From: Escherichia phage OliverMaurmann_Bas86
Sequence record: PQ850622.1
Direction: 5' to 3' (one strand)
Length of the DNA: 64,000 bases
Part shown: positions 37,864 through 58,685 of the stretch, piece by piece
Numbering within the stretch: the first letter of the stretch is position 1
Layout: the number at the start of each line of letters is the position of its first letter
The notes under the pieces: model-generated
The model's database searches: none
What the model was told of the DNA's origin: nothing
What the model saw: the letters and a program-made list of their open reading frames with translations, nothing else
Position numbers and translations under genes: made by a program

Positions 37864-39708
37864 TTAGTGAGTGTGATTCCAGTTTAACCCAATCTTACAA
37901 TCAGATGCAAGAGGACATTCCATTTTGAGGTATTCACCTGCTTTACGAACACACTCTTCAGTGAGGGTACGAAGTTTGTTAACATCGTCACGATGTACAG
38001 TGAACTGGCCTTCATCATGCATGTCAATAACCTTCGCACAACGAACACCATCACGCTCAATCCATTTATTAAGGAATAGCATTGCATACTTCATAACAAT
38101 CGCCCCAGCGCTCTGTAAGAGAGTGTTTAAGGCTTTATGAACCATAACCTTTCCAGTTGCATCTCTTCTCATTGTAATACGACGTCCATCCACACCGTAG
38201 ATGTATCCACTTTGTGCTTTCTCTGTCATACGTTCAATAAGAATTGCAATACAAGGATTCTCTGCTAAGAATCTTGCCCTCATGACAGCCCCTTCATCAG
38301 AGCCACCACCTACGATGCTTCCTAACTTAGCGTCACCAGCTCCGTAGTTGAATGCATAGATAAACGTTTTAGCATTATCACGAGTAGGAAGGCCAGCAAG
38401 TTTTTGGTTATGTGAGTGAATATCTCCTTCTAAAAGAATATCTCTGTACATAACAGCAGAAGCTAGACCGCGTTCAGCTTCTCGTTTCTTAGCTGGGTTG
38501 TTTTCCTGCTCTGCTTCAGCGAGCATCTCACGACATTCTTTGATAAGGTAATGAGCAAGCATCCTCAGCTCAAGACCAGAGCCATCGTAACCTAAGAAGA
38601 TTTCACGACCAGCAGGTACATAAAATTTATAAGCACCTATTGGTTTGTCTTTCTTGCCCGGTTTTCCCATTTCGTAGATAATGTTAGTACCCTTTCGTAC
38701 GTAACACCCATCAGGGATATGGTTGGTAATGATGAAAGGATGGTTATGACTATCGTCTGAGGAATAGTCAGATTGAAAAAGACTGCGGCACTCGTGACCA
38801 AACAAACCGCGAGAAGGAATATTAACAACAATGCGATGTTTAAAACGAAATGTCGGAGTAGCGCAGCTATTAGCTTCGGCGGACAACTTACCATCTTTAC
38901 GTTCCTTGTCGATAAGCCCGCTAATCAAACCTAGCCTGTGAGCCGCTACAACGCGTCTCTTAAGCAAACTTCCTACACCCCCTAGCTCACCCCCAAGCCC
39001 CTCTTCAAGAGTCTCCTCAAGGTTTGTAGGGGCTGTAGGCCACTTGTTTGATGTAGCCAAAGCTTTTTTGATTTCATCAAAGGTTACAGGCTTCTTCCTA
39101 TTAGGGTTGAGACCTAAACCGCTGACATAGGCTTTCATATAATTGACAGTGTGATAACGGAAGTGCTTATCCAAAAACCTTCGGATATCAGCATCTATCA
39201 TCTCTGCTGTCTGTTTCTCTTTAGCGTTACCTCGAATCCAAGCAGAATACCATGCAGAGTATGTACCATACTTCTTCATAGCTTTACGAATTTCAAAAGT
39301 ATTCCAAGGTTTCTTAGAATAATTCCACTCTGGAGGTATAAAACCTTCATCCATCAAGGCTTCTTTGATACGTGCATCTTTTGATGGGTCAAAGTCTACA
39401 TACTCAACGCAAGTAAACGCCCCACCGATATCTTCTCTTTTAAGACCAACCCTATCACAATAGAGTTGAGGCCACTTCTGCAAAGCACCGGACTTCTTAA
39501 AAGGTTTAGAATAAGTTGAACCATCCACCCGCATTTTGGGGAGGAGAGGAATCAGTTCTTTATCAATATTGACAATAATCTCTTTGAGAAGATGAACAAA
39601 CCACCGAGCGTTTCTTCTGTTGAAGTTGACTCCATGCTTCGCCTGTTTTGAGATTATATCAGCGACTGTCATCTCCGTTATGAAAGGTAACTTATCAGGG
39701 TTATCCAT
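37864..39708 (-). CDS. DNA polymerase, family A
   Basis: Motif A DGSGLELRMLAH, motif B RDNAKTFIYAFNYGAG, motif C MHDEGQF; ATG 39708 with GGAG RBS preferred over the GTG 39711 of the ORF track. Confidence 0.9.
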   Translation of the reverse strand: MDNPDKLPFITEMTVADIISKQAKHGVNFNRRNARWFVHLLKEIIVNIDKELIPLLPKMRVDGSTYSKPFKKSGALQKWPQLYCDRVGLKREDIGGAFTCVEYVDFDPSKDARIKEALMDEGFIPPEWNYSKKPWNTFEIRKAMKKYGTYSAWYSAWIRGNAKEKQTAEMIDADIRRFLDKHFRYHTVNYMKAYVSGLGLNPNRKKPVTFDEIKKALATSNKWPTAPTNLEETLEEGLGGELGGVGSLLKRRVVAAHRLGLISGLIDKERKDGKLSAEANSCATPTFRFKHRIVVNIPSRGLFGHECRSLFQSDYSSDDSHNHPFIITNHIPDGCYVRKGTNIIYEMGKPGKKDKPIGAYKFYVPAGREIFLGYDGSGLELRMLAHYLIKECREMLAEAEQENNPAKKREAERGLASAVMYRDILLEGDIHSHNQKLAGLPTRDNAKTFIYAFNYGAGDAKLGSIVGGGSDEGAVMRARFLAENPCIAILIERMTEKAQSGYIYGVDGRRITMRRDATGKVMVHKALNTLLQSAGAIVMKYAMLFLNKWIERDGVRCAKVIDMHDEGQFTVHRDDVNKLRTLTEECVRKAGEYLKMECPLASDCKIGLNWNHTH

Positions 39709-39724
39709 CACCCACTCCTTATAG

Positions 39725-40081: not shown

Positions 40082-40351
40082 TTACTCCACTGTCGGGAAA
40101 GGTTTCAAATTATTCATAGCTGTACGAACAATAGCACAGATTTCAGGGTCACGATAAGAGAGGAATTTTCCATCCTTGCCACGAATCATTACATTAGTTC
40201 GCGCTGTTTTGTTAGGTAATAAAGAGATCCCTCCAAGCAGGTGGTTGGTAGGATGTTGTCCTTGATTAACTTTGTAATCATGAGTGTGAGCCTCACCATT
40301 AAAGAGATGATCACGGATTTGAATTAAACTGATTTTCATATTATGCACCAA
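40082..40351 (-). CDS. Small protein, paralog pair member (shared TARTNV..RG..GKF.S.RD...NLKPFP)
   Basis: 89 aa; clear similarity to the adjacent 83-aa ORF. Confidence 0.5.
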   Translation of the reverse strand: MVHNMKISLIQIRDHLFNGEAHTHDYKVNQGQHPTNHLLGGISLLPNKTARTNVMIRGKDGKFLSYRDPEICAIVRTAMNNLKPFPTVE

Positions 40352-40592
40352 AGTTAGGGAAAGGTTTCAGGTTTTCAATGGACTTAGCGATACGCTTAGG
40401 GACACTCTTATCGCGGAAGGAGATGAATTTGCCATTAGCACCACGAAGGGCTACGTTAGTACGAGCTGTTGTTGGATTAAACTGAATCATCTCAACAGAG
40501 CCTGTAATGTTTTCTACAGGGAAAGTGTAGCTCTCAGTTGCATTCATAGAAGGAAGGAAATCAGTTACAGTGATATAAGTTACTTTAGACAT
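40341..40592 (-). CDS. Small protein, paralog pair member
   Basis: 83 aa; see 40082-40351. Confidence 0.5.
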   Translation of the reverse strand: MSKVTYITVTDFLPSMNATESYTFPVENITGSVEMIQFNPTTARTNVALRGANGKFISFRDKSVPKRIAKSIENLKPFPNFGA

Positions 40593-40648: not shown

Positions 40649-40963
40649 TTAACTAGAGCTTAAAGCTCCTTTGCGACCGCCTGCTGATTTTCCAGCACGA
40701 TCTCCACTTTTGCCGCCGTTCGAGCGATTTCGAGAGACTGATTCAACACGTAAGTTACTTGACGCATTAGAACCTCCCGACTTGATTGATCGTTTATGTC
40801 CAACGTCTTTACCTCGGACAGCAGCTTTTCCATCGCGCTTTTCAACGATGCGACGTGCACGGTGGCGCTGAGCATCTCCGCTCTTGCTACCAACACCTGT
40901 CTCCCCACGTTTGATTGCGGTACGTCTTTCTTGCTCATAATCTCTTTTCGCCTTATCCGTCAT
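40649..40963 (-). CDS. Highly basic Gly/Ser/Lys/Arg-rich small protein
   Basis: 104 aa; GAGGA RBS 9 nt upstream of ATG. A 92-aa helical ORF (40660-40938) overlaps on the same strand in another frame. Confidence 0.4.
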   Translation of the reverse strand: MTDKAKRDYEQERRTAIKRGETGVGSKSGDAQRHRARRIVEKRDGKAAVRGKDVGHKRSIKSGGSNASSNLRVESVSRNRSNGGKSGDRAGKSAGGRKGALSSS

Positions 40964-41333
40964 TGTTAGTTATCCTCTGATTGAAAGTGTGAATTGCGTG
41001 GCAGTTAGCGCAGAGGATTCTGCACTTCTTCATCTCTGCCTTCACTTGAGAAATTGATCTCGTGTGACCTTGAGATAGCTCAAAGGATTTTTCAGAGGGG
41101 TTAATATGGTCAAACTGGAGAGCAGAAGCGTGTTCTTTATAGCCACACAGAGAGCATCCGTAAAAGGTTTTAACTCTTCTGATGAATACTAATTGTCGAT
41201 TTCTTCTCTCTTCATTGTAAAGCCTACGCTTCTCCCTATTAGCTGGGTCCGCGTACCTGCACCTGTCTGAACAGTATTTTTGAAATACAAACCTCTTCTC
41301 AAATACTTCTTGACAAGTAGGACAAACATCCAT
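40953..41333 (-). CDS. HNH endonuclease (zinc-binding)
   Basis: 126 aa; CPTC...C..C, then FDHINPSEK...CANCHAIH; preceded ~45 nt upstream by TAATGTACT. Confidence 0.7.
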   Translation of the reverse strand: MDVCPTCQEVFEKRFVFQKYCSDRCRYADPANREKRRLYNEERRNRQLVFIRRVKTFYGCSLCGYKEHASALQFDHINPSEKSFELSQGHTRSISQVKAEMKKCRILCANCHAIHTFNQRITNNDG

Positions 41334-41408: not shown

Positions 41409-42146
41409 TCATGATTTTTCAGATTCCATTGCTTTAACAATAGCTTTACAGAAACCTGAACGAACAATATCGTCTGATTCACCATCTACTAGAGCGGCAA
41501 ATTCAAATAAATTGTGACGGTATATGAAATCAGTAGCCCAATCTAGACCACTCTCACCACGCATGTCGTGCTGATTAGTGTCCCCCATACAGAACATCTG
41601 AGAGGTTTCACCAAGACGTGTCATGATTGAATATGCTTCATCAGGAGTAGTATTCTGGAACTCATCAACAATTACAATAGAATCGTTGAATGAGCGACCA
41701 CGGAGATATTCCAGAGGTACGAACTCAATGTTACCGTTGCCAATTTGACACTCATAGAAGCCTTTACCATAACGCTGAGTGATAACATCAACAATAGGCA
41801 TTAAGTATGGTTCAAACTTCTCACGAAGCCCACCGGGAAGTAATCCAAGACTGTTACCCATACCAACAGCAGGTCGGCTTAGGATAATCTTCTCAATCTT
41901 CCCACTTTTCAGAGCATCAATAACAGTTGTTGTGATAACATAAGTCTTACCACAGCCAGCAGGAGCATCTGTGAATACAACCTGTTTGGTTTTAATTGCA
42001 TCAAGCAGCTCACTCTGGAATTGGTTCTGAGGTACTACCGGCTTAGCAAGAACTACTTCTTCAAATTCCCGCTTTCCTTTCTTGGTGACGAGAGCTTCAC
42101 GACGTAATTCTCTCCGTGATGCTTTCCGAGATTCTCTACGACTCAT
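41409..42146 (-). CDS. phoH: PhoH-like ATPase
   Basis: 245 aa; Walker A FTDAPAGCGKTYV; strong GGAGG RBS. Confidence 0.85.
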   Translation of the reverse strand: MSRRESRKASRRELRREALVTKKGKREFEEVVLAKPVVPQNQFQSELLDAIKTKQVVFTDAPAGCGKTYVITTTVIDALKSGKIEKIILSRPAVGMGNSLGLLPGGLREKFEPYLMPIVDVITQRYGKGFYECQIGNGNIEFVPLEYLRGRSFNDSIVIVDEFQNTTPDEAYSIMTRLGETSQMFCMGDTNQHDMRGESGLDWATDFIYRHNLFEFAALVDGESDDIVRSGFCKAIVKAMESEKS

Positions 42147-42324: not shown

Positions 42325-42645
42325 TCAGATTGATTTGTCCTTATGTAAACGGTATACTTCAGTAGTCATACAAGCTATACGCTCGTCATGTGGGAGATGC
42401 ATACCAGTAGAGCCGTTCCATCCTTCGAACTCTGAATCAAAGAATCCAATAGGCTCGGGATACATCTCTTGCAAGGTGGTTAAGTCATCAGCCACTTGTT
42501 GCCACTTATCGTCAGACCAGATTGGGTCATCCAACCAATAATACAAATAGGAGTGGATAAGCATCTGTGTTCTGTGTCGTTTAATCACTTCAGCAGGACT
42601 GATTTCATTTCCGTTACCAGTCCTAAATGTACTATCGTTGATCAT
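42325..42645 (-). CDS. Small protein resembling the N-terminal Ia domain of NAD-dependent DNA ligase
   Basis: 106 aa; HSYLYYWLDDPIWSDDKWQQVADDLTTLQEMYPE parallels E. coli LigA [35 protein letters not shown] (from memory). Confidence 0.4.
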   Translation of the reverse strand: MINDSTFRTGNGNEISPAEVIKRHRTQMLIHSYLYYWLDDPIWSDDKWQQVADDLTTLQEMYPEPIGFFDSEFEGWNGSTGMHLPHDERIACMTTEVYRLHKDKSI

Positions 42646-42831
42646 TTAGATAACCTTGTGCTCGTAGATGCTGGGGTTGAAATAATGCAACCAGTTTATA
42701 TATTGTTTCTGTTCAAGGTAGTGTCTGCAATCATGACAAAAAGCATGACCCAAACCTGTTTCCTCGTTCAGCTTGAAGTTGATAAGAAGCTTCTGCTTTT
42801 GACAGAAGCTACATGTTTTGTATAAGTCCAC
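42646..42831 (-). CDS. Small zinc-ribbon protein
   Basis: 61 aa; CSFC ... CHDC. Confidence 0.4.
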   Translation of the reverse strand: MDLYKTCSFCQKQKLLINFKLNEETGLGHAFCHDCRHYLEQKQYINWLHYFNPSIYEHKVI

Positions 42832-42976: not shown

Positions 42977-43624
42977 TTAACTCTCCAAAGTTTTCTTCAA
43001 AGCTGCCCATGAGATTGGATAGAGTTTAGCCATCTCTTCATCTAATGACTGAGCAAATAGTCGAACTTCATATTGAGCATGGGATGATAGTCGTTGACGA
43101 CACAATTCAAACCAGCCATACAAGCTACCAGTCCAGTACCAAGTAGTTACCATACCTTGAGGTAAAACAAATCTAGCTTGTTCAGGAGCTACGAACTTAA
43201 TCAATTCGTCATAACTAGCAAGAGATGCCTCGTACGCAGAGTTAAACAAAGCTAAAGCTTTTGCCTCTTCCTCCCCTTCAAGAAGTATTCCAGAACCAGA
43301 ATGTAGATCATCTGGACGGGAGAAGATTTCTTTAGGTATGAAAATATCCACTGCTCCATCTTTATATCTACGACTCATCTCGTTCCAAGAAAAACCAACT
43401 TGATGCTTCTGTAACTGTCGTGCAATTGCTATAGGAGCTTCGCATCTGAAGCTCGCTTGTGGGTGACGAAAAGGACTTACGTGTCGTTCCCGAGCTAGAA
43501 AATTTATTAGACGAGTGTCACTTTCTTTTAATTCTTCCCTTTCTACCCCCATAGTTACACGAGCAGCATTGACTACTGTAAGATCTGAACCGAAGTTATC
43601 AATTAATGAAGCTTTGATTGTCAT
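42977..43624 (-). CDS. thyX: Flavin-dependent thymidylate synthase (ThyX)-like protein, divergent signature
   Basis: 215 aa; collinear with ThyX but the RHR....S motif reads KHQVGFSWNEMSRRY. Confidence 0.7.
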   Translation of the reverse strand: MTIKASLIDNFGSDLTVVNAARVTMGVEREELKESDTRLINFLARERHVSPFRHPQASFRCEAPIAIARQLQKHQVGFSWNEMSRRYKDGAVDIFIPKEIFSRPDDLHSGSGILLEGEEEAKALALFNSAYEASLASYDELIKFVAPEQARFVLPQGMVTTWYWTGSLYGWFELCRQRLSSHAQYEVRLFAQSLDEEMAKLYPISWAALKKTLES

Positions 43625-44090
43625 TTATGTAAGTCTCCTTGACTTTATTATATTCCCTAGAGGCTTCTTCTATGGTTGAGAAGAGTCCTATGTGCTTAGA
43701 TTTAAATACCGCCCGGTAAGCAATAGAGCCACTTTTCCTTCTATGGACAGTCACTCCAATCACTCCGGTTGATAAATTATTACTCTGAGCTACTTTGTTT
43801 AGGCCATTTCCTGATCTAGTAGTCCCCCTAAGATTCTCTCTTTTGTTGTTTATCCTGTTGCGGTCTATGTGATCTACTTCTTCAGGAAGCAATCCAGTGT
43901 CCCACCAGTAAGCAAGTCGATGAGCGTAGTATCTAGCACCTTTATAAACGATTCTCAAATACCCATTGGTATTTACAGAACCAGCTATAGACCCTTTGTG
44001 TCCTTTTCCATAAGTTTTAACCCATCGGAAATCTCCAGTCAAAGGGTCGTAATCAAGAGCTTCTTTTATTGACGGGTCAATATCATTCAT
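43599..44090 (-). CDS. HNH homing endonuclease (HNH_3 + AP2-like)
   Basis: 163 aa; YDPLTGDFRW, GYLRIVYKGARYYAHRLAYWW...VDHIDRNRINN. Confidence 0.75.
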   Translation of the reverse strand: MNDIDPSIKEALDYDPLTGDFRWVKTYGKGHKGSIAGSVNTNGYLRIVYKGARYYAHRLAYWWDTGLLPEEVDHIDRNRINNKRENLRGTTRSGNGLNKVAQSNNLSTGVIGVTVHRRKSGSIAYRAVFKSKHIGLFSTIEEASREYNKVKETYINDNQSFIN

Positions 44091-46388: not shown

Positions 46389-46922
46389 TTATACGCCTTT
46401 AGAAGCAACAACCCCATCAGAGTTATTGTAACGACCCTTCACTGCATAGGAATCATCACCAGCGTGAGAGTGTTCAAACATAACCATTTGACCAACACGC
46501 ATCCCAGCACGAACTCGTAAGCTGTGATTGTGGGTAACGTTATGGAACTCAAAGGTTAGCTTACTGCTGTTAAACCCTGCATCAGCCCACCCAGCATGTA
46601 AGTGGTTCAAACCACAACGAGCCATTGAGGAGCGAAGTACAAACAGACTTGAGATGTTATCTGGAAGGTTAAACTCTTCCATTGAGTGCGCTAAGAAGAA
46701 TTGTCCCGGAGTGATGACAATACCATCTTCAGGGATTTTCACCTCTTTCCACTTGAGGTTTTCTTTAGCATCAATGTCAACAATGCCGTCAGCCTGTTCT
46801 TCAACAAGGATAGTATCACCAATACGGATATCCACACTAGCAGCGTTAACATATTTATGCTCCGCATCTAAAAAGCCATTATCAATAACACTGTGTAATT
46901 CTTGAGAACCTAAAAGACTCAT
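46389..46922 (-). CDS. dcd: dCTP deaminase family protein
   Basis: 177 aa; AGWADAGFNSSKLTFEFHN resembles the Dcd/dUTPase-fold GW.D.GF.G....E motif. Confidence 0.75.
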   Translation of the reverse strand: MSLLGSQELHSVIDNGFLDAEHKYVNAASVDIRIGDTILVEEQADGIVDIDAKENLKWKEVKIPEDGIVITPGQFFLAHSMEEFNLPDNISSLFVLRSSMARCGLNHLHAGWADAGFNSSKLTFEFHNVTHNHSLRVRAGMRVGQMVMFEHSHAGDDSYAVKGRYNNSDGVVASKGV

Positions 46923-48367
46923 GAGTTTCTGTTTCCTTGTACAGATGATGCCAAATTGTTAATCATGTTACGAGCTGTTTCACGAGTCAGCGTAACACCT
47001 GCTAAGTTACTATCAAGTTCACCAACTAATTCACGAGCTGTTGCTCGGAGTTCTGCACCAAGTGTAGTGTTAGAATGAGCCAGACCATTACGACGACCGA
47101 CAGGTCGAGGAGTATTGTTAGCATCATTAGCTAAAGATGCAAAACCAATACGAGCAGCTTCACGAGCGGCTATAGCTGCTACCCGATCTTCCGTAGGGGT
47201 TGGCAAATCACCAACTTCTACACGTTCTATATCACTAGAACGTAGACCCTGAACAACAGAGCTAACTGTTTCCCATGAACGACGGGAGCGCTGCAAATCA
47301 CCCATAGATGGAGAAGAAGCAGGTCGAACAGTTACTCCACCTGTATCATGAGTGACGTGCCATGTACGAGTACCCATTCCAGAAGAACGGGCACTACCAA
47401 AACTACCAGTGAAAGTATCACGAGGTGCCTCTGTAGCAGGTGCTGCGAATCTTGTCTGTTGCCAAGAGTCACGTCTGTCAGTTCCCGGAGTCCAAGGCTG
47501 CGTAATTGCTTCAGCACCTATAGTGGTTAATCCGCTAGACCATTCTGTCTGTAGATTAACTTCCTCGTCCAGATAACTACGACCCCTTTCCTGAGGAATG
47601 TTTAATATAGTTTCCATCATCTTCAGGGTATAATGATGACGCTGATTCTGATATAAATTTACACCAGCCATAGGTCCAACTAAATCACTAATCAGGTGAA
47701 CTTCTGGCTCACCGAAAGCTCCCATTGCAAGGTGCATGTATTCAGTAGAACTGCTATAAACTGCAACAGTTGCTTCAGGCCACTTCTTGTGAACATACTT
47801 CATTTCACGACTAGATACCACAGGAATGTCACGAGTGTATGACATTGCAAACAAACCTTCGTTTGACACATACAGATTACCAAGAGTCATAAACCCTTGA
47901 CAGATCATAGGAAAGCGACGGCTTAAAGTATCCATATCCAAAGGTAGATTAATCATCATCTGGATTTTAACTTGATCAATCTCAATTTCCAGAATCTCTT
48001 GGAAAGTGAAAAGCGCTTCAGCATAGGTTGTCCCGTTAACAGGCTGAATTAGTCGAGATGTAACCTGAAGCCCCTTACTTTCTGTCCAAGATAAGAAGTT
48101 GTCAAGGAATAGTGCAGCATTACCTACGTTAGCAGGGCTGTTTTCTTGACGAGTGTTCCAACGAAGCCCTCCTTGAACTAGGAAGATATCAACATCATTC
48201 GGAGTTCTATTTTGAAAGAACGTATCACGGATAGCACCACCTGCAATAACAGGATAGATGCCATCAGGGACTACGTTATCTCTGATCAAATTACGAATCA
48301 GGTCAAGCCCTACACTGAGGGCTTCTCCTTCTTGAAGGTTCAATTCAGATAGTGGAATCTTAATCAT
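46919..48367 (-). CDS. Pol-beta superfamily nucleotidyltransferase (CCA-adding/poly(A) polymerase-like head motif) with Arg/Ser/Thr-rich C-terminal tail
   Basis: 482 aa; VIAGGAIRDTFFQNRTPNDVDIF matches the GG.(V/I)RD...D.D motif; last ~200 aa low-complexity. Confidence 0.55.
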   Translation of the reverse strand: MIKIPLSELNLQEGEALSVGLDLIRNLIRDNVVPDGIYPVIAGGAIRDTFFQNRTPNDVDIFLVQGGLRWNTRQENSPANVGNAALFLDNFLSWTESKGLQVTSRLIQPVNGTTYAEALFTFQEILEIEIDQVKIQMMINLPLDMDTLSRRFPMICQGFMTLGNLYVSNEGLFAMSYTRDIPVVSSREMKYVHKKWPEATVAVYSSSTEYMHLAMGAFGEPEVHLISDLVGPMAGVNLYQNQRHHYTLKMMETILNIPQERGRSYLDEEVNLQTEWSSGLTTIGAEAITQPWTPGTDRRDSWQQTRFAAPATEAPRDTFTGSFGSARSSGMGTRTWHVTHDTGGVTVRPASSPSMGDLQRSRRSWETVSSVVQGLRSSDIERVEVGDLPTPTEDRVAAIAAREAARIGFASLANDANNTPRPVGRRNGLAHSNTTLGAELRATARELVGELDSNLAGVTLTRETARNMINNLASSVQGNRNS

Positions 48368-48369
48368 TT

Positions 48370-48918
48370 CTACATTTTCCAGTTGAGAGATGGGGGATTC
48401 TTATAATCAAATCCAGCCATTTGGCAAAGACACATGTAAACCTTAACTGTCAAGTTAACGTCTTGTTCACAATACGTGAACATGTCTTCAGTGAAAGCAT
48501 CCCATGCTTCTTCCTGTTCACCATAGTCACCCTTCAGCTCTCCCAGAAATTCGCCCCATTGCTTGAGGCCATGACCGCGAGGTCCGTGTCTAGGGTCGCC
48601 TTTGGGATATTCTGGACTGTCACCAATACGGTCAGGCTTGAGGTATCGACTCAGGCACAGGGTATCAAAGACATTAAAACGAAAAGGTATCACATGAGAG
48701 TAGAATTTAAACAAAGCAGGAAGGTCAAAATCAATAATATTGTGACCTATTACTACATCAGCTTCTTTCAGTTTGTGTAGTGCTTCTTCAATTTGGTGAG
48801 GGCGATACCCCCACCGTTCTCCAGACAGTACATCAAATATCCATATACACCAGACATTCTGAATACCATCATAGAGGTTATCACCTTCAATATCAAACGC
48901 ATACAGTTTCTTTACCAC
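48370..48918 (-). CDS. DnaQ-like 3'-5' exonuclease (stand-alone)
   Basis: 182 aa; Exo I FDIEGDN, Exo II HNIIDFD, Exo III YCEQDV; GTG start with AAGGGGAGG RBS. Confidence 0.75.
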
Positions 48919-51879: not shown

Positions 51880-53115
51880 TTACAGAGTTACTGCTACTTC
51901 GCTACCTTCAACATTGACAGACTCTAACTTGCGAGGGTTATGAATCTGTACCGGATTAACCGGAACGTTCCAACCACTACGGTAGAAGTTACGACCATCA
52001 CAGAACAAAATGACATTGGCAGACATTGCATTCGGTTGCAGGTTGTTATGGACATGACGGATATCTGCAATCCAATAACCACGAGACAAAGTGTAACCAG
52101 TAGGTGCATTACGAATAGTTTGAGTATTCATCTGACCTTCCAGTTGCATCTCTTCAGGAACTACATCTACCGAATCAACTGGCTGTGCTACCTGATCTTC
52201 CAGTGCAAAGTTTTCATCATTAGCGCTTTCGCTGTCATCTACCAACTCACCGTCTCCATCTTCAATCGGAGTCTGGTAAACCACTTTATACTGAGGAGTA
52301 TAGAGAGGGTTCTGAGCTTTAACAAACTCAAGGATGTTATGGCGGTAGGTATCCAGAGTTGTACCAGTCAGGCCCGGTGCTGTATTAACTTCCAGTACCC
52401 ACGCTTCTTGACCTTTGGTGATAATATCAACTGCACCGAAATCCAGACCCATTGATTCAACAGCTTTCACCGCATTGATCAGAGAGGCGTCATTCGGAGC
52501 ATCTGTGAAGGAGCTTGAGTAAACCCAGCCAGTGTGGTGATTACGAATATCTTCACGATAGTTAGGGTCTTCGCGATAACCATTGCGACGAATCTTCTTC
52601 TGAACATAGGTGATTACACCTTTGAACACATGAACACGCCACTCACGACGTGGGCCTTGAATGCCTTTAGTGTACAGTTCAGCTCGACCAAGACCATCAC
52701 CCGGTTCTACAACAACAATACCCGAACCAGAGTGACCAGTCAGCTCATGGCGCTCATACACAATATTACCAGTGTTTGACCACTCCTGAGCAGTCTCTTG
52801 AACATCTGTGTATTCCACAGTTTTAACACCTGCTTGGTCCATCACACTGAAAGCACGACGTTTGTTCGCTGCCATATATAAGGCTGCGGTACGGTTAAGG
52901 ACGGTTGCAGAACCAAAGAATGATTCAGGATAGCGACGGTTCCCGTAGTTAACAACCACATCACCTTCACGAGAACGCCAGCGGCTATTCTCTGAAAGAA
53001 GACCCATCACGTTAGCATTGATGCGTTCATCACGGATAGTATCACTGATAGCAGATACTAGAGCGTTAACAGAATCAGACGGGCCATACGGAAGAACACG
53101 GATACGAGTAGTCAT
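51880..53115 (-). CDS. ATP-grasp enzyme (RimK-like ligase) with extra C-terminal domain
   Basis: 411 aa; ELTGHSGSGIVVV, EWRVHVFKG, WVLEVNTAPGL; acidic linker then ~120-aa C-terminal region. Confidence 0.85.
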   Translation of the reverse strand: MTTRIRVLPYGPSDSVNALVSAISDTIRDERINANVMGLLSENSRWRSREGDVVVNYGNRRYPESFFGSATVLNRTAALYMAANKRRAFSVMDQAGVKTVEYTDVQETAQEWSNTGNIVYERHELTGHSGSGIVVVEPGDGLGRAELYTKGIQGPRREWRVHVFKGVITYVQKKIRRNGYREDPNYREDIRNHHTGWVYSSSFTDAPNDASLINAVKAVESMGLDFGAVDIITKGQEAWVLEVNTAPGLTGTTLDTYRHNILEFVKAQNPLYTPQYKVVYQTPIEDGDGELVDDSESANDENFALEDQVAQPVDSVDVVPEEMQLEGQMNTQTIRNAPTGYTLSRGYWIADIRHVHNNLQPNAMSANVILFCDGRNFYRSGWNVPVNPVQIHNPRKLESVNVEGSEVAVTL

Positions 53116-53117
53116 TT

Positions 53118-53348
53118 TTAGATACCTTTTAGTTTAAGAATTTCGTTACGACAGGATTGAATTTTAGCTTCGATTGCCCAATACTCAGCGAACATTTCGT
53201 CTTCTTGGGCATCGCTTGGAGAGTCAATTAAGTTAAAAGCAAACGGATACAGCTTTCGCTGCTCCGTTACCAGTTGTTGAAGTCGGAGTTGTTGATACTC
53301 CAGCATTGTCAGGTGAGGCTTAGCTCCCTTGCTTGACATGAGGCTCAA
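53118..53348 (-). CDS. Hypothetical small protein
   Basis: 76 aa ORF. Confidence 0.35.
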   Translation of the reverse strand: MSLMSSKGAKPHLTMLEYQQLRLQQLVTEQRKLYPFAFNLIDSPSDAQEDEMFAEYWAIEAKIQSCRNEILKLKGI

Positions 53349-53553
53349 CTTTAATCCCCTTCATTTTAACATAGTCAGCCAACACGTTATTGATAACGGT
53401 TGGAAAAGGGATTTCTACTGGAGAGTCAACCAGCTTCCCAATACCTTCTTGCATCCACTTCTGGATTGCTCGGAGGTTATCACATCCTGTGCTTGTCATC
53501 GGAATACGGCGGGTAGTTACCACGTTATCCAACATCAGTTTACGAACTTCCAT
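53320..53553 (-). CDS. Hypothetical small protein
   Basis: 77 aa ORF. Confidence 0.35.
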   Translation of the reverse strand: MEVRKLMLDNVVTTRRIPMTSTGCDNLRAIQKWMQEGIGKLVDSPVEIPFPTVINNVLADYVKMKGIKVEPHVKQGS

Positions 53554-53564
53554 AACTATACCTC

Positions 53565-55598
53565 TTAGTGTTTACCTTTACAGTAATCTGAATTACAGAT
53601 CACCCTGTTTTCTTTGTTCAGTGAGCAAGTTTCTGCATCACGCCACGGAATTTGTTTATAACAGACTGCACAAAACCCAATTGAAGTCCAGAGGGCTTTT
53701 GTAAACTCAGCTGTTCGTTGTCCATCGTAACTGACAACTGTTTTTCGGAGAGAGGTTGACTTTTCTGGAAATGTCTCCGCTTTCTCAGCGGGTACCTCCT
53801 TTGGGGCATTCTTTGGACCATAAACAGAGATGGCATAAGTATCACCACCACGTTTTTCCAAATACGAATTAGGAACATCTGCAAGTGTGATGTCCCCTGA
53901 ACGTTTTGCTGAGCTGACCATTACAATCATACGGCTAAGCATACGTTCATCAACACGAACAGCTACTTCAGGACGACGTGGGTTGGTTGTGTCTACTGCT
54001 TTAGTCCAAATATAACCTTCAGATAGAGTAACATTCTTTACTTTATCTTTGATTTCTTTGGAGCAGATATAACAAACGTCTTCACCACGAAGTTTACTCA
54101 TTTCGTTGTCAAACTCGAAATCAGTCTTGACTTCACCACAGATAGCACATACACCCAAAGGCACATCTTCTTCCTCTTCAGAGGTTTTAGATAACGCTTC
54201 GAAGCATTCTGGATGCCAGTATGCCTGATAAGCAAACACAGCCTTACGAGCATCTTTCCAGTCAATGTGCTTATCACAACCACCACAGTCACCATGAGAG
54301 TGAGATTCCCAGAACTTACGAGTGACTTCTACACCATTCTTAGTGATGAAGGAGTCCTCTGCATCAAAAGGGATATCATCATCAAAATCAGCAGTAGTGC
54401 TTTGAGGCTCCTTATCTGTAGCATCAACAAACAGCCCTGAAGTTAGTACGAGGCGAATCATACTGTCCACTTCGGAGATACAAGCGATTGTCCCGCGATA
54501 TACTACCTTTGGGTTTTCAAGAGCCTTAAGATATTCATCTTTGGCTACGTTGTGAACATCCCCTTCGACATACTCTTGGGCTTTATCATCGTAGATGTAA
54601 CCAACCATCTTACCACGATCTGTGTTGTTATAAGCATGGAACTCGTGAGGAGTAATATCCACACGACCATCACGACGATAAGGAAGACCACGATCGGCAG
54701 CCAGTTTGTTCTGGTCTTCAATCGCTTTACGACGACGAATGTCTCCGCTTGTCACGCCGGGCTTGTCGTCTTTGTTTCCGTAAATGTCGCTTGTGCTGCT
54801 GCTTGGTTTGTTTGTCTGTTGGTTCTGATAAAGAGAGGAGTTCGAGTAATAGCCGCCCCAGCGACTCGTTACCGTAAAAACCGGAAGCTTGTGCTCCACC
54901 TCTTGAACCAGAGTCATACGACTGTTAGACACATCAAAGATATACTCAGTTCCCACTTTACACTCGAAGTGGTCATTGATACGGTTCTTGTGGGATTTAG
55001 AACGCTCTAAAATCCACATAAGCATAGCTTCTTCAGAAGCCCCAAACCAATCCAAACCACAGCGGGCTAGGTGGAAAGGACGCTCATCATTACGGATAAT
55101 GTGAAGCGTGTTGTCTTTAGCATCATGCCAAATCAAAGTGAATGCACCATCCAGTTTTTGGATAGTCTCTGCTGCTCCAATGGTGTTAATTGAGTGGCAG
55201 ATGTTTTCACTATCAACTTCGAAACGCTTACTGTCAGGAAGGAGATCTTGATCTAACAGGGTTCCATTATGAACCAGAGTAATATCCCCGTGAGTAAATG
55301 GGTGAGCATTTCGAGCATTGACAGCCCCACGAGTGGCATGTCGGCTGTGACCAACAATCCACGAAGGAGGAACTACGTAGTTCGTAAGCCCTTTGGTAAT
55401 ATTTGTATATTCTGTCTGGAGCATAAAAGCATAAGAAGGAAGAGCTTCTTTATAAGAGAAGACTTGCTTTTCACCTTTACGCTGACCAAACACACCAGTT
55501 GAGTGCTGTCCACGGAAAACACCAGCATACAGAAGTTGGTTGAAAATGTCCAAATCTGCTGAGGTCATGTTGCCGCCAGCTAATACGATACCACAAAT
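53565..55598 (-). CDS. Class-II (Ntn-type) glutamine amidotransferase domain protein with Cys-rich C-terminal region; predicted ATT start
   Basis: IVGHSRHATRGAVNARNAHPF resembles the GlmS-type motif. Frame is open 10 codons upstream of the ATG, encoding (start)-CGIVLAGGN; ATT at 55598-55596 sits 7 nt after AGGTGGA. Confidence 0.75.
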   Translation of the reverse strand: MCGIVLAGGNMTSADLDIFNQLLYAGVFRGQHSTGVFGQRKGEKQVFSYKEALPSYAFMLQTEYTNITKGLTNYVVPPSWIVGHSRHATRGAVNARNAHPFTHGDITLVHNGTLLDQDLLPDSKRFEVDSENICHSINTIGAAETIQKLDGAFTLIWHDAKDNTLHIIRNDERPFHLARCGLDWFGASEEAMLMWILERSKSHKNRINDHFECKVGTEYIFDVSNSRMTLVQEVEHKLPVFTVTSRWGGYYSNSSLYQNQQTNKPSSSTSDIYGNKDDKPGVTSGDIRRRKAIEDQNKLAADRGLPYRRDGRVDITPHEFHAYNNTDRGKMVGYIYDDKAQEYVEGDVHNVAKDEYLKALENPKVVYRGTIACISEVDSMIRLVLTSGLFVDATDKEPQSTTADFDDDIPFDAEDSFITKNGVEVTRKFWESHSHGDCGGCDKHIDWKDARKAVFAYQAYWHPECFEALSKTSEEEEDVPLGVCAICGEVKTDFEFDNEMSKLRGEDVCYICSKEIKDKVKNVTLSEGYIWTKAVDTTNPRRPEVAVRVDERMLSRMIVMVSSAKRSGDITLADVPNSYLEKRGGDTYAISVYGPKNAPKEVPAEKAETFPEKSTSLRKTVVSYDGQRTAEFTKALWTSIGFCAVCYKQIPWRDAETCSLNKENRVICNSDYCKGKH

Positions 55599-55675
55599 TT
55601 TCTAATCCACCTGAAGGGTAAACCCTTTCATCTAATTAACCTTTAAATGCGCCCTGTATAAGAGCGCCCGTTGTG

Positions 55676-56776
55676 TTACAGCAGTCGTTCTAATTGCATT
55701 TCCAGAAGGTCTGGAATATAACCAGTGACGTTATCATCACTGCTACCTGATTCACGCATCAATGCAAACATGTGACGAATTTCACGAACCGTTGCGATTC
55801 GAGTGCTTTCAATCTGAGGGGTGTAGTAGGTCATGATCTCTTCGTAGACACTGTTGGCATTACCGCGCACATATCCCAAGAAACCATAGAAGTCATTCAT
55901 ATCACGTAAGTTGATAAGGACTTCACCATCAGGGCCAGTCTGTTGCACACGAACACGACCAACCAAAGTCACAGATTGCTCACGACAGAAGAGAATATCA
56001 CGAGCAAGACGATACCCTTCAGTGAGATCACTGTCTCTTGGAGTATAGTCTAGGGGTAGATGTTGAATCATAGGAGCGAAGCGCAGCTCATTCAACTTCT
56101 CAACATAAGCTTCATTGTCTAAATCTGCATATTCAACAGCCAGTTTCTTGAGAACCAAGAAGCGGTTGACCAGATTCAGAAGTTGGCTCTTTTTCCACTT
56201 CGGCTCTGAGATACGGAACTCAACAGAACCAAATTGAGATAGAGGCAAAAGATTAAGGGAGGTATATTTATCCCAGCTATTAACAAGAGAGTGGAAGAAA
56301 GCTTCCCCGTCTCGGTTGAACGCTGACGAAGCATTCATAACTTGTGCTTGAACGACAGCAAAAGCTGGACAGAAGTTGCTACGATAGCGATGGTATCCAG
56401 AACATTTGAACATCATCTTTTCATAGAACGTCCATCCAAGAATAACTTTCTTAAGGATGTTACTATCAGCGTCACGCATATCCATATGAACATGAGTGGA
56501 GCAGCGCCAAGTTCCCTCGGCTCCAGAATCCTGTACTGCTTCACTCAGATTGTTAATAGCACGAAGTAATTCTTCACCGTTGTAAGGTCGTGCACATACT
56601 AATTCACAACCATCACGAAGAGAGCCATCTTCAGTACAAACCCACATATCAGCGTCAATGTCAGTTGTACCTTCGACTTCTAACTCAATACCAACACCAC
56701 ACTGAAAAGCAATACTTGGATGCGGTTCAGATAAGCGAGGGTTACGGTATCCAAAAACTTGTGCTACGGTTGTCAT
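55676..56776 (-). CDS. Glutamine synthetase-like amidoligase (carboxylate-amine ligase)
   Basis: 366 aa; GIELEVEG, STHVHMDM, GSVEFRISEP. Confidence 0.55.
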   Translation of the reverse strand: MTTVAQVFGYRNPRLSEPHPSIAFQCGVGIELEVEGTTDIDADMWVCTEDGSLRDGCELVCARPYNGEELLRAINNLSEAVQDSGAEGTWRCSTHVHMDMRDADSNILKKVILGWTFYEKMMFKCSGYHRYRSNFCPAFAVVQAQVMNASSAFNRDGEAFFHSLVNSWDKYTSLNLLPLSQFGSVEFRISEPKWKKSQLLNLVNRFLVLKKLAVEYADLDNEAYVEKLNELRFAPMIQHLPLDYTPRDSDLTEGYRLARDILFCREQSVTLVGRVRVQQTGPDGEVLINLRDMNDFYGFLGYVRGNANSVYEEIMTYYTPQIESTRIATVREIRHMFALMRESGSSDDNVTGYIPDLLEMQLERLL

Positions 56777-57399
56777 AATGATTCCACCAACTCTACATTA
56801 TATGATGACAGGTCTGAAGAAATATGCTTGAACTTCTCCAGAAGGTTTAAAGATTGACGACCATTGTCGCCATAACCAGCTTCAAGAAGCACGTTTCCAA
56901 CGTAAGCCCCTTTGTAATAAACTTTTCCATCGACAGGATTGATATAGATGAAACGAGTAACCAACCCTTCAAACTCTGGATTAAACAGGTTGTACACCAA
57001 TTCACCCGGAATCGAACGACCGAGAGAAGGAGGTGCACCGCGAAGTTTGTTTCCCATCAAACCTTTAGCTCTCTGACGAACAGGGTTGATATGGGTCCAG
57101 CTCACCATGTTATTGCCATGCTGAAGGTATCCTACATCTGGAGATTCCAGAATAAGGCTGTGATCAAACACTGGTATATTGCTAACAATCTGACGTTCAA
57201 ACTGACCTTCAGAGTTTTTAGTCCAACGTTCTGCCTCAAACACTAAAGACATTTCAGCGTCGTGTGAGTAGTCGTCGATATCAAAGTTACCTTGCTGACG
57301 AACATCAAGCACATATAGAGGGAGGTTTTTACCATCAGGTGATCGCTGAGCAATCCATGTTCCACAATAATAGTGTTGAAAATCTCTTAACAAGCTCAC
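56773..57399 (-). CDS. Hypothetical protein within amidoligase cluster
   Basis: 208 aa; GTG start with AAGGTGA RBS. Confidence 0.45.
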   Translation of the reverse strand: MSLLRDFQHYYCGTWIAQRSPDGKNLPLYVLDVRQQGNFDIDDYSHDAEMSLVFEAERWTKNSEGQFERQIVSNIPVFDHSLILESPDVGYLQHGNNMVSWTHINPVRQRAKGLMGNKLRGAPPSLGRSIPGELVYNLFNPEFEGLVTRFIYINPVDGKVYYKGAYVGNVLLEAGYGDNGRQSLNLLEKFKHISSDLSSYNVELVESL

Positions 57400-57408
57400 A
57401 ATATCACC

Positions 57409-58218
57409 TTATACAATCTGGAGTTTAGAGGAGAATTTATCCGCTTCTTTAACATCGTTGCTGTTGATGATGTTATGAAGCTTTTCGATTGGAAGACGAG
57501 AGTGAAGTGACATCAACACTTCCATATCACAGCCTTGAACAACCTTATCCACTTGCTCATAAACAAACTTGCGGGTTGACTTCTCACCAATCCAGAAGTT
57601 AGAAAGAGAACGATATTCAATACCGTAGTCCTTGTAACGAATAGCAGAAGCCTTTCCGTACAACTCTTTACGACGAGTGTCTTTATCCATGATTACAGCT
57701 GGCAAGGACAGGAAGTAATCACACAGCACACCCAACATCATTTGAGTTTGTCGATTGATCTCCAAAGTTCCAGAGACACCGAGGTGCACATGGCCCCCAG
57801 CAGTACGCAAACCTTTATCGGTTGCGACTGGTGAAGGGTTCTTTTGTCCAGTGAAGGCGTTGAAATCAGGAGTACAGCCAAATACAAAAGCTGACGGATG
57901 GAATGATTCAAGCTCTTCTGAAGTGAACACATGAGAGCTAATCCCAAGCGCTGCTTCCAGACCACGATCATTCAGGATTTTGTTAGTCAGATCAATACCG
58001 CGCTGAATATTATCATCAAACGCTTCAAACCCTTTCTGTGGGTTAATATCAAACTCAGCCAGAACGTTGTCTTCTTGAAGACGAACATCAGGAGCCAGAT
58101 CAATTTTGTTATCTTTAGAACATCCCAGCTTACCAGCCACAGAGGTGATAATACCGGAAGCAGTACGAACAAACATTTCCGGATCCGACCCTATTAAGAA
58201 TTTACGTTTAGTAGTCAT
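57409..58218 (-). CDS. Second GS-like COOH-NH2 ligase (phage amidoligase type)
   Basis: 269 aa; GSDPEMF and GGHVHLG. Confidence 0.5.
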   Translation of the reverse strand: MTTKRKFLIGSDPEMFVRTASGIITSVAGKLGCSKDNKIDLAPDVRLQEDNVLAEFDINPQKGFEAFDDNIQRGIDLTNKILNDRGLEAALGISSHVFTSEELESFHPSAFVFGCTPDFNAFTGQKNPSPVATDKGLRTAGGHVHLGVSGTLEINRQTQMMLGVLCDYFLSLPAVIMDKDTRRKELYGKASAIRYKDYGIEYRSLSNFWIGEKSTRKFVYEQVDKVVQGCDMEVLMSLHSRLPIEKLHNIINSNDVKEADKFSSKLQIV

Positions 58219-58685
58219 GCTTTAGTCCAACCTTTATGAGATAGATAGTTTTTAAATCTGCCACTGTGCACAGCGCCCATGTGGCCTTGATGTAAGTCGT
58301 TGCTTCTACAGAAGTCTCTAAGATTGTATATTGTTACAACCTCGCCATCTGGAGATCTAAACTTCCAAAATCTAGCATTCCCTTTCACAGCGTTTTCTTC
58401 ACTGGTCAGAAGTTGGAAATTACTTGGGTGGTTATTAAGTTTATCGCCATCGATGTGATCAACAGTCATACCATCCGGAATAGGCCCAATAAACAATTCA
58501 TACATAAGTCTATGTAATAAAAAGTTCCTTGTTATCTTTTCAGGAGCCTGAACTGTTGTAAACTTAAGATAACCATCTTTATCAGGAAACAGTTTCCTCT
58601 GTTTCCCTGTTCTTGCATGGAATATACTACCGTCTTCGAACACCAAGAAGGTAGCAACTCCGACTACTAACTCCCTAAATTCCAT
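58215..58685 (-). CDS. HNH homing endonuclease inserted in amidoligase cluster
   Basis: 156 aa; HRLMYELFIGPIPDGMTVDHIDGDKLNNHPSNFQLLTSEEN. Confidence 0.75.
   Translation of the reverse strand: MEFRELVVGVATFLVFEDGSIFHARTGKQRKLFPDKDGYLKFTTVQAPEKITRNFLLHRLMYELFIGPIPDGMTVDHIDGDKLNNHPSNFQLLTSEENAVKGNARFWKFRSPDGEVVTIYNLRDFCRSNDLHQGHMGAVHSGRFKNYLSHKGWTKA

Follow-up and report, generated by a model that had tools for sequence, protein, structure and literature searches.

The Nlig-Ia locus of phage Bas86

The 64,000-nucleotide stretch of Escherichia phage OliverMaurmann_Bas86 analysed here (PQ850622.1; hereafter the window) contains, on the minus strand at 42325..42645, an ATG-start open reading frame (ORF) that encodes 106 aa and ends in a stop codon at 42325-42327. 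Its product is a member of the phage-specific solo Nlig-Ia family, a helical protein of ~100 residues. Pfam model PF22745, titled 'Nlig-Ia, DNA ligase-like N-terminal NAD+-binding domain', matches it with E=3.7e-33 and 114.5 bits (cutoff 27), and the match spans residues 16-103 on model positions 1-91 of 92, thus covering nearly the whole model. PHROG 6466 matches as well (E=3.9e-38). The protein contains both family motifs, HSYLYY..D....D..WQ and F..WxGSTGMHLP, which are invariant or near-invariant in alignments of 42 and 237 members, and it shares 96.2% identity with ECBP2_0056.

The gene belongs to a well-populated phage group. A 3.5-kb query around it is 98% identical to Escherichia phage vB_EcoP_PAS59 and 82-93% identical to ~95 other phiEco32-like podophages, including the Gordonclarkvirinae SU7 and ECBP2; by sequence similarity, the window is assigned to an E. 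coli podophage of the Gordonclarkvirinae. Searching with the protein itself (tblastn) retrieved 87 Escherichia and 3 Shigella phage records, essentially the whole group. The orthologues of phiEco32 and of the BASEL phage Bas92 are 74-75% identical to it.

Nlig-Ia sits in a minus-strand run that reads HNH endonuclease (43599-44090), ThyX, two small ORFs, Nlig-Ia, a 49-aa ORF, PhoH, a second HNH endonuclease and a 104-aa basic protein. Directly upstream is a 61-aa Cys-rich, zinc-ribbon-like ORF (42646..42831, minus strand; PHROG 15951, E=3e-22). The stop codon of this ORF directly adjoins the start codon of Nlig-Ia, so that co-translation of the pair is probable. The flavin-dependent thymidylate synthase ThyX occupies 42977..43624 (minus strand; Pfam Thy1, E=4.7e-43), and the PhoH-like ATPase lies two genes downstream of Nlig-Ia at 41409..42146 (minus strand; Pfam PhoH, E=2.9e-56). 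A scan for minus-strand terminator-like sites returned just two, of which that at 41552-41532, within phoH, is weak and that at 40645-40621 strong; there is none between ThyX and Nlig-Ia. These two genes are predicted to lie in one transcription unit, and the order ThyX..Nlig-Ia..PhoH recurs in ECBP2 and SU7.

Homology to domain Ia of NAD+-dependent DNA ligase

The original prediction described a stand-alone protein resembling domain Ia of the bacterial NAD+-dependent DNA ligase LigA, and quoted a peptide that we find at residues 31-64. Since PF22745 appears to depict the solo family itself, we examined the link to LigA separately, with a profile built from 42 family members and searched against PDB sequences. 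The profile retrieved ~20 different LigA chains, all at their N-termini and all in one register (best E=0.0026), among them those of E. coli, Thermus, Mycobacterium, Staphylococcus, Enterococcus and Haemophilus. Aligning the family profile with E. coli LigA (MG1655) by hhalign gave a probability of 91% and E=9.3e-7 over LigA residues 4-50.

Structure prediction agrees. The AlphaFold2 (AF2) model of the Bas86 protein (pLDDT 91, pTM 0.82) contains helices at residues 17-36, 45-61 and 88-103, with an ordered loop between. In a Foldseek search of the PDB, LigA structures take the top 17 places, and 1dgs and 7k72, for example, superpose on the model over 47 columns at 0.7 A. The first two helices, a hairpin spanning residues 17-61 (42463..42597, minus strand), form the part homologous to LigA's domain Ia, which in the bacterial ligase secures the NMN half of NAD+. 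Pfam model, family profile, hhalign and fold search thus all agree with the proposed resemblance.

Two other candidate relatives were set aside as chance matches. STN1 scored E ~0.1 in a single-sequence phmmer search against the PDB, just above LigA, but the family profile lifts LigA to the top. The SNF2 remodeller 5hzr, a profile match at E=0.008, is hit within its helicase core and is absent from the fold searches; the helicase fusion described below is a separate observation and does not alter this judgement.

Absence of a ligase

The solo protein cannot ligate DNA, because it has no nucleotidyltransferase, OB, zinc-finger, HhH or BRCT domain. Nlig-Ia is its sole Pfam match, and the chain ends at residue 106 without a nucleotidyltransferase domain or its KxDG lysine. 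The missing parts are not encoded elsewhere in the window: tblastn with full-length E. coli LigA matches only the Nlig-Ia ORF, over LigA residues 12-53, and finds no match in the 64 kb to any residue beyond 53. Pfam and PHROG scans of the large minus-strand ORFs in the window likewise found no ligase adenylyltransferase; they identified a family-A polymerase that is split, a primase/helicase of the DnaB type, an exonuclease, a dCTP deaminase, ThyX, PhoH and a phiEco32-type amidoligase/ATP-grasp cluster. The earlier remark that no other ligase domain lies nearby holds across the full 64 kb by tblastn and, for the large minus-strand ORFs, by Pfam and PHROG. Beyond Bas86, the complete annotated SU7 genome lists no ligase except a 109-aa orthologue mislabelled 'NAD-dependent DNA ligase'; the complete genome annotation of Arthrobacter phage Pumpkins is likewise without one.

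It follows that many GenBank records are wrong in labelling ~100-aa orthologues 'DNA ligase' or 'NAD-dependent DNA ligase'. A 2023 genomic description of the phage group also names the gene NAD-dependent DNA ligase, and one record, O18-011, gives 'baseplate hub assembly protein' under the Nlig-Ia match. Repeated through hundreds of phage records, the ligase label masks these phages' lack of a ligase and hence their dependence on that of the host. Those many records are also what could be cited for a split ligase with its catalytic part encoded elsewhere, or for a remnant of a lost ligase gene, readings that we regard as barely credible. No catalytic module was found in the window or in the annotation of the complete SU7 genome; a decaying remnant is ruled out because the family is large, ancient and strongly constrained, with conserved elements of its own that LigA lacks.

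Absence of a ligase also bears on the earlier suggestion that the protein inhibits host LigA. A free domain Ia could in principle compete with the domain that LigA carries in cis and block the NAD+ step, crippling host repair and replication, and homology is the one point in favour of this dominant-negative scheme. We consider it very unlikely, because carriers without a ligase should need host LigA and would block sealing of their own lagging strands. Moreover, the genes with which it shares its transcription unit serve replication and nucleotide metabolism, not early host shutoff or takeover. The inhibition proposal thus finds no support here and is disfavoured by inference.

One further gene in the window had to be considered as a ligase. 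The only 'nucleotidyltransferase' of the window, at 46919-48367 (minus strand; 482 aa; PHROG 12715, E=7e-169), was rejected, since its N-terminal GGAIRD...DVDIF is a motif of the Pol-beta/CCA-adding type and not KxDG. The C-terminal half of the protein is long, of low complexity and rich in Ser, Arg and Thr, and the protein as a whole has no Pfam or PDB sequence match. The gene lies between the dCTP deaminase and the exonuclease subunit of the polymerase. The family-A polymerase itself is split into separate genes for the polymerase domain (37864-39711) and the 3'-5' exonuclease subunit (48370-48918; both minus strand); the two lie ~9 kb from each other, an arrangement already described in these phages.

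A predicted nicotinamide-nucleotide pocket

Alignments with LigA place a predicted nicotinamide-nucleotide pocket at residues Y35, Y36, D45, W48 and Q49 (42499..42543, minus strand). Relative to domain Ia of E. coli LigA (residues 1-69), with which the solo protein shares the two-helix hairpin and a common register of pocket residues, Y22 and D32 persist as Y35 and D45, H23 becomes Y36, as in Thermus LigA, and Y35 and D36 become W48 and Q49. The last two replacements are found in most members of the solo family. Sriskanda and Shuman reportedly showed in 2002 that the E. coli LigA residues needed for the NAD+ step are Y22, H23, D32, Y35 and D36. Two of these five (Y22 and D32) are retained in the Bas86 protein, and the others are changed to Y, W (still aromatic) and Q, respectively.

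Across 237 family members, Y35, Y36 and D45 are each conserved in 236. At position 48, 217 members have W, 17 have F and 3 have Y; at position 49, 181 have Q and 32 have D. The pocket positions are therefore kept in 76-99.6% of members, Q49 being the lowest (181/237) and all others reaching at least 92%. In LigA, the nicotinamide is stacked between a pair of domain Ia tyrosines and the catalytic domain completes the pocket (PMC7470946); the stacking tyrosines correspond to Y35 and W48 of the Bas86 protein.

Judged from these alignments, the solo family keeps the predicted NMN pocket, with typical Y-to-W and D-to-Q changes. No positions of the family are more conserved than those of the pocket, which makes binding of NAD+, NMN or a close nicotinamide nucleotide seem most likely. 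Two considerations temper this prediction. First, the W and Q replacements extend through the family, and the ligand could differ from NAD+ or NMN. Second, since the LigA pocket needs both domain Ia and the catalytic domain, an isolated Ia might bind only weakly.

A family-specific loop and C-terminal helix

Two conserved elements distinguish the solo protein from domain Ia of LigA. The first is a loop, F-x-x-W-x-G-S-T-G-M-H-L-P, at residues 73-85 (42391..42429, minus strand), in which F73, W76, G78, T80, G81, L84 and P85 are invariant or near-invariant and H83 is kept in 181 of 235 members. The AF2 model renders it as an ordered non-helical segment (pLDDT 85-95). No LigA counterpart of residues 73-85 was detectable, the LigA alignments ending before the loop. 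The second is the C-terminal helix at residues 88-103 (42337..42384, minus strand), which AF2 predicts and which is common to solo members, not LigA. In keeping with this division, the fold aligns over 87-108 columns with solo relatives in BFVD (TMq 0.74-0.89) and over only 45-72 with phage LigAs.

We infer that loop and helix may either replace the missing catalytic-domain wall of the pocket or form an interface with a partner. Whatever they do, the solo protein cannot perform the role of domain Ia in LigA, which orients the NMN leaving group so that the lysine can be adenylylated in cis: it has no nucleotidyltransferase domain attached, its pocket is altered, and it carries these extra elements.

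A large phage family

Solo Nlig-Ia proteins form a large family. Exhaustive HMMER searches, clustered at 50% identity, yielded 1040 clusters at E<=1e-3 and 589 at E<=1e-10, nearly all of them solo proteins of 60-190 aa. Isolates that carry the gene include phages of Escherichia, Arthrobacter, Clostridium, Rhodococcus and Enterococcus, the Erwinia, Salmonella and Proteus jumbo phages, and others. The size of the family and the conserved pocket positions indicate strong purifying selection, which points to a real function.

Cellular genomes contribute almost nothing. One genome for each of 185,579 bacterial and archaeal species gave only 8 loci, about half of which resemble true LigA N-termini. 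Solo ORFs do occur in the assemblies of a Massilia sp. (L009 5980-6426) and a Paenibacillus sp. (L012 5929-6276); one adjoins a DNA cytosine methyltransferase gene, and the other lies in an AT-rich island with an integrase-like gene. Although each probably belongs to a prophage or a mobile island, they put a qualification on the published claim that solo Nlig-Ia is exclusive to viruses.

The family itself is not new. Iyer, Burroughs, Anantharaman and Aravind (Viruses 2022; PMC9503650) reported in section 3.5.1 that Nlig-Ia occurs 'as a solo protein in 81 phages', noted that its ligand-binding residues are conserved, and gave ECBP2_0056 as the example. Their protein is effectively the same as that of Bas86, alike in gene order, subfamily, length of ~100 aa, absence of a ligase and pocket, with nothing substantive that differs. 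The family, its solo nature and the hypothesis of a sensor have thus been known since 2022, through a 96%-identical protein, and the family is curated as PF22745. Relative to section 3.5.1, our analysis adds the replication-module context, the loop and C-terminal helix, the W and Q frequencies, a helicase fusion and the size of the family. We found no experimental study of the solo family in the literature.

Replication-module context and a helicase fusion

In every lineage examined, at least seven unrelated phage lineages in all, Nlig-Ia lies within a replication or nucleotide-metabolism module. Its neighbours are PolI and a primase/helicase in Arthrobacter phage Pumpkins; a beta clamp, resolvases and a clamp loader in Clostridium phage phiCTP1; and Tmk and ThyA in the Erwinia jumbo phage Phobos. 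Clostridium phage CS32 has the gene between NrdD and NrdG/primase, together with DnaB. T4-like metagenomic phages encode gp45, gp44/62 and RegA upstream of it and gp33, gp59 and gp32 downstream, and metagenomic contigs with the family member P0087 carry ThyX, RNR, dCMP deaminase and Rnl1/kinase. When we clustered the ORFs of 80 viral loci, no single partner gene was conserved across lineages; only the type of module was common. Module membership is circumstantial evidence for a role in replication.

A fusion protein offers a further hint. Gp102 of Rhodococcus phage ReqiPoco6 (541 aa; L007 4959-6584, equal to NC_023694.1 71433-73058) is labelled 'DNA ligase', and we found no ligase domain in it. 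Instead, gp102 joins an entire Nlig-Ia domain of the solo type (PF22745, E=1.2e-32) to an SF2 helicase with the Walker A sequence GVGTGKT, a DEQ box and a match to PHROG 62 'DNA helicase' (E=9e-66). Gordonia, Arthrobacter and Streptomyces phages encode helicases of the gp102 type without the Nlig-Ia domain. The fusion, which section 3.5.1 of PMC9503650 does not mention, is a possible Rosetta-stone link between Nlig-Ia and replication or recombination helicases. Together, module location and helicase fusion point toward replication rather than defence.

The helicase does not appear to be a split partner of the solo protein more widely: the Pumpkins-type Arthrobacter phage Warda and others have no homologue of the ReqiPoco6 helicase. 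Nor did the best 150 representatives of the family reveal a recurrent enzymatic fusion partner; apart from tails without annotation, they showed one protein with tandem repeats and two in which the domain is fused to a region resembling PHROG 13900. The tandem-repeat protein is metagenomic P0179 (321 aa), with two to three Nlig-Ia-like repeats. In metagenomic P0170 and P0189, the domain is followed by a C-terminal region of ~180 aa that matches PHROG 13900 'minor head protein'.

A proposed role in phage DNA replication

Combining these observations, our best reading of the sequence is that the Bas86 protein would serve phage replication as an accessory that binds a nicotinamide nucleotide; it is no ligase, and it probably does not inhibit LigA. 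In its general form, we favour with modest confidence the proposal that it binds NAD+, NMN or a close relative and hands on information, or the ligand itself, to a partner protein linked to phage DNA replication. Expressed within the replication and nucleotide-metabolism operon, the protein would have its ligand, NAD+, NMN or a near relative, sandwiched by Y35 and W48, and its D45 and Q49 would contact ribose and amide. The WxGSTGMHLP loop and C-terminal helix might supply the wall that the catalytic domain gives in LigA. It would most likely report nicotinamide-nucleotide availability to a protein partner, or buffer it. That the protein has no output domain of its own counts against this role.

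A more specific version is that solo Nlig-Ia is a replisome accessory of ligase-less phages, not an immune sensor, and couples nicotinamide-nucleotide binding to lagging-strand synthesis. For example, host NAD+-dependent ligase could be loaded or recruited, or a replication helicase could be gated by NAD+ or NMN. We offer this version as a speculation and consider it rather unlikely. If true, the Rhodococcus-phage fusion of Nlig-Ia to an SF2 helicase would be a covalent version of the partnership.

Host LigA is one conceivable partner. The protein could bind NAD+ and dock on LigA, activating the ligase or tethering it at phage forks, so that sealing of Okazaki fragments could continue when NAD+ is scarce. 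The carriers examined have their own polymerase and primase/helicase and no ligase, the gene lies inside replisome clusters, and a helicase fusion exists, all of which suit such a helper. Section 3.5.1 of PMC9503650 states that all but one of the 81 carrier phages (80 of 81) lack any ligase, but reads this as independence from ligase. LigA, moreover, has its own domain Ia in cis, which a copy in trans must out-compete, and no part in binding LigA is known for the conserved loop and helix at the C-terminal end. We rate a helper or recruiter of LigA as improbable.

The remaining alternative separates the protein from replication altogether. The same section proposes that solo proteins 'likely function as NAD+ sensors... 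or shield NAD+', that is, they would detect the collapse of NAD+ caused by NADase effectors or protect the NAD+ pool. The NAD-sensing idea of the original prediction matches this published one, is consistent with the conserved pocket residues, and overlaps with the role that we favour. NAD+ depletion is a common defence that phages counter via NARP1-3, which lends an immune function some plausibility. NAD+ is, however, a millimolar metabolite in E. coli, and at the levels generally known for this host, stoichiometric shielding by a small protein is implausible. Further, no NAD+-salvage, NADase, Macro, Nudix or known anti-defence gene lies beside Nlig-Ia in the neighbourhoods examined, and there is no output domain through which a sensor would act. 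An immune sensor or shield apart from replication seems unlikely to us, more so than a LigA helper.

NARP1, NARP2, NARP3 and the Tad1/Tad2 sponges resemble solo Nlig-Ia in that it, too, is a phage protein predicted to handle an NAD+-related small molecule. In contrast to it, the functions of those systems are experimentally supported: NARP1-3 are enzymes that rebuild NAD+, and Tad1/Tad2 are sponges for ADPR-derived signals. Solo Nlig-Ia has no catalytic domain, has an unrelated fold and does not lie beside such genes; the recently described NARP3 pathway is unrelated to it.

Much of the conflict between bacteria and phages turns on NAD+, and LigA is the one enzyme essential to replication that uses it up; for these reasons, a widespread, conserved, phage-only protein with a ligase-type pocket is a good candidate for a link between NAD+ status and phage DNA replication. 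At ~100 residues, it makes binding and structural work straightforward.

Other features of the window

The downstream end of the Nlig-Ia run has features of its own. The 104-aa protein encoded at 40649-40963 (minus strand) is extremely basic and rich in Gly, Ser, Arg and Lys. Directly after its gene lies the hairpin at 40645-40621, the strongest terminator-like site of the region, which marks the end of the Nlig-Ia transcription unit. The HNH gene between PhoH and the basic protein (40953-41333, minus strand) is absent from all close relatives, and megablast matches of relatives, including the 98%-identical PAS59, start only at ~41407; the gene has the look of a homing endonuclease that was inserted recently. 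The window contains at least two more HNH genes (43599-44090 and 58215-58685).

Beyond the hairpin are two adjacent small paralogous ORFs (40082-40351 and 40341-40592, minus strand; 89 and 83 aa) with the common motif TARTNV-x-[IL]RG-x(1,2)-GKF[LI]S[YF]RD ... NLKPFP. Finally, the minus-strand cluster at 51880-58218 encodes an ATP-grasp enzyme, a class-II glutamine amidotransferase, an amidoligase and a phiEco32-type COOH-NH2 ligase. It is the known peptide/metabolite-modification cassette of phiEco32-like phages, near which SU7 encodes a gamma-glutamyl cyclotransferase.
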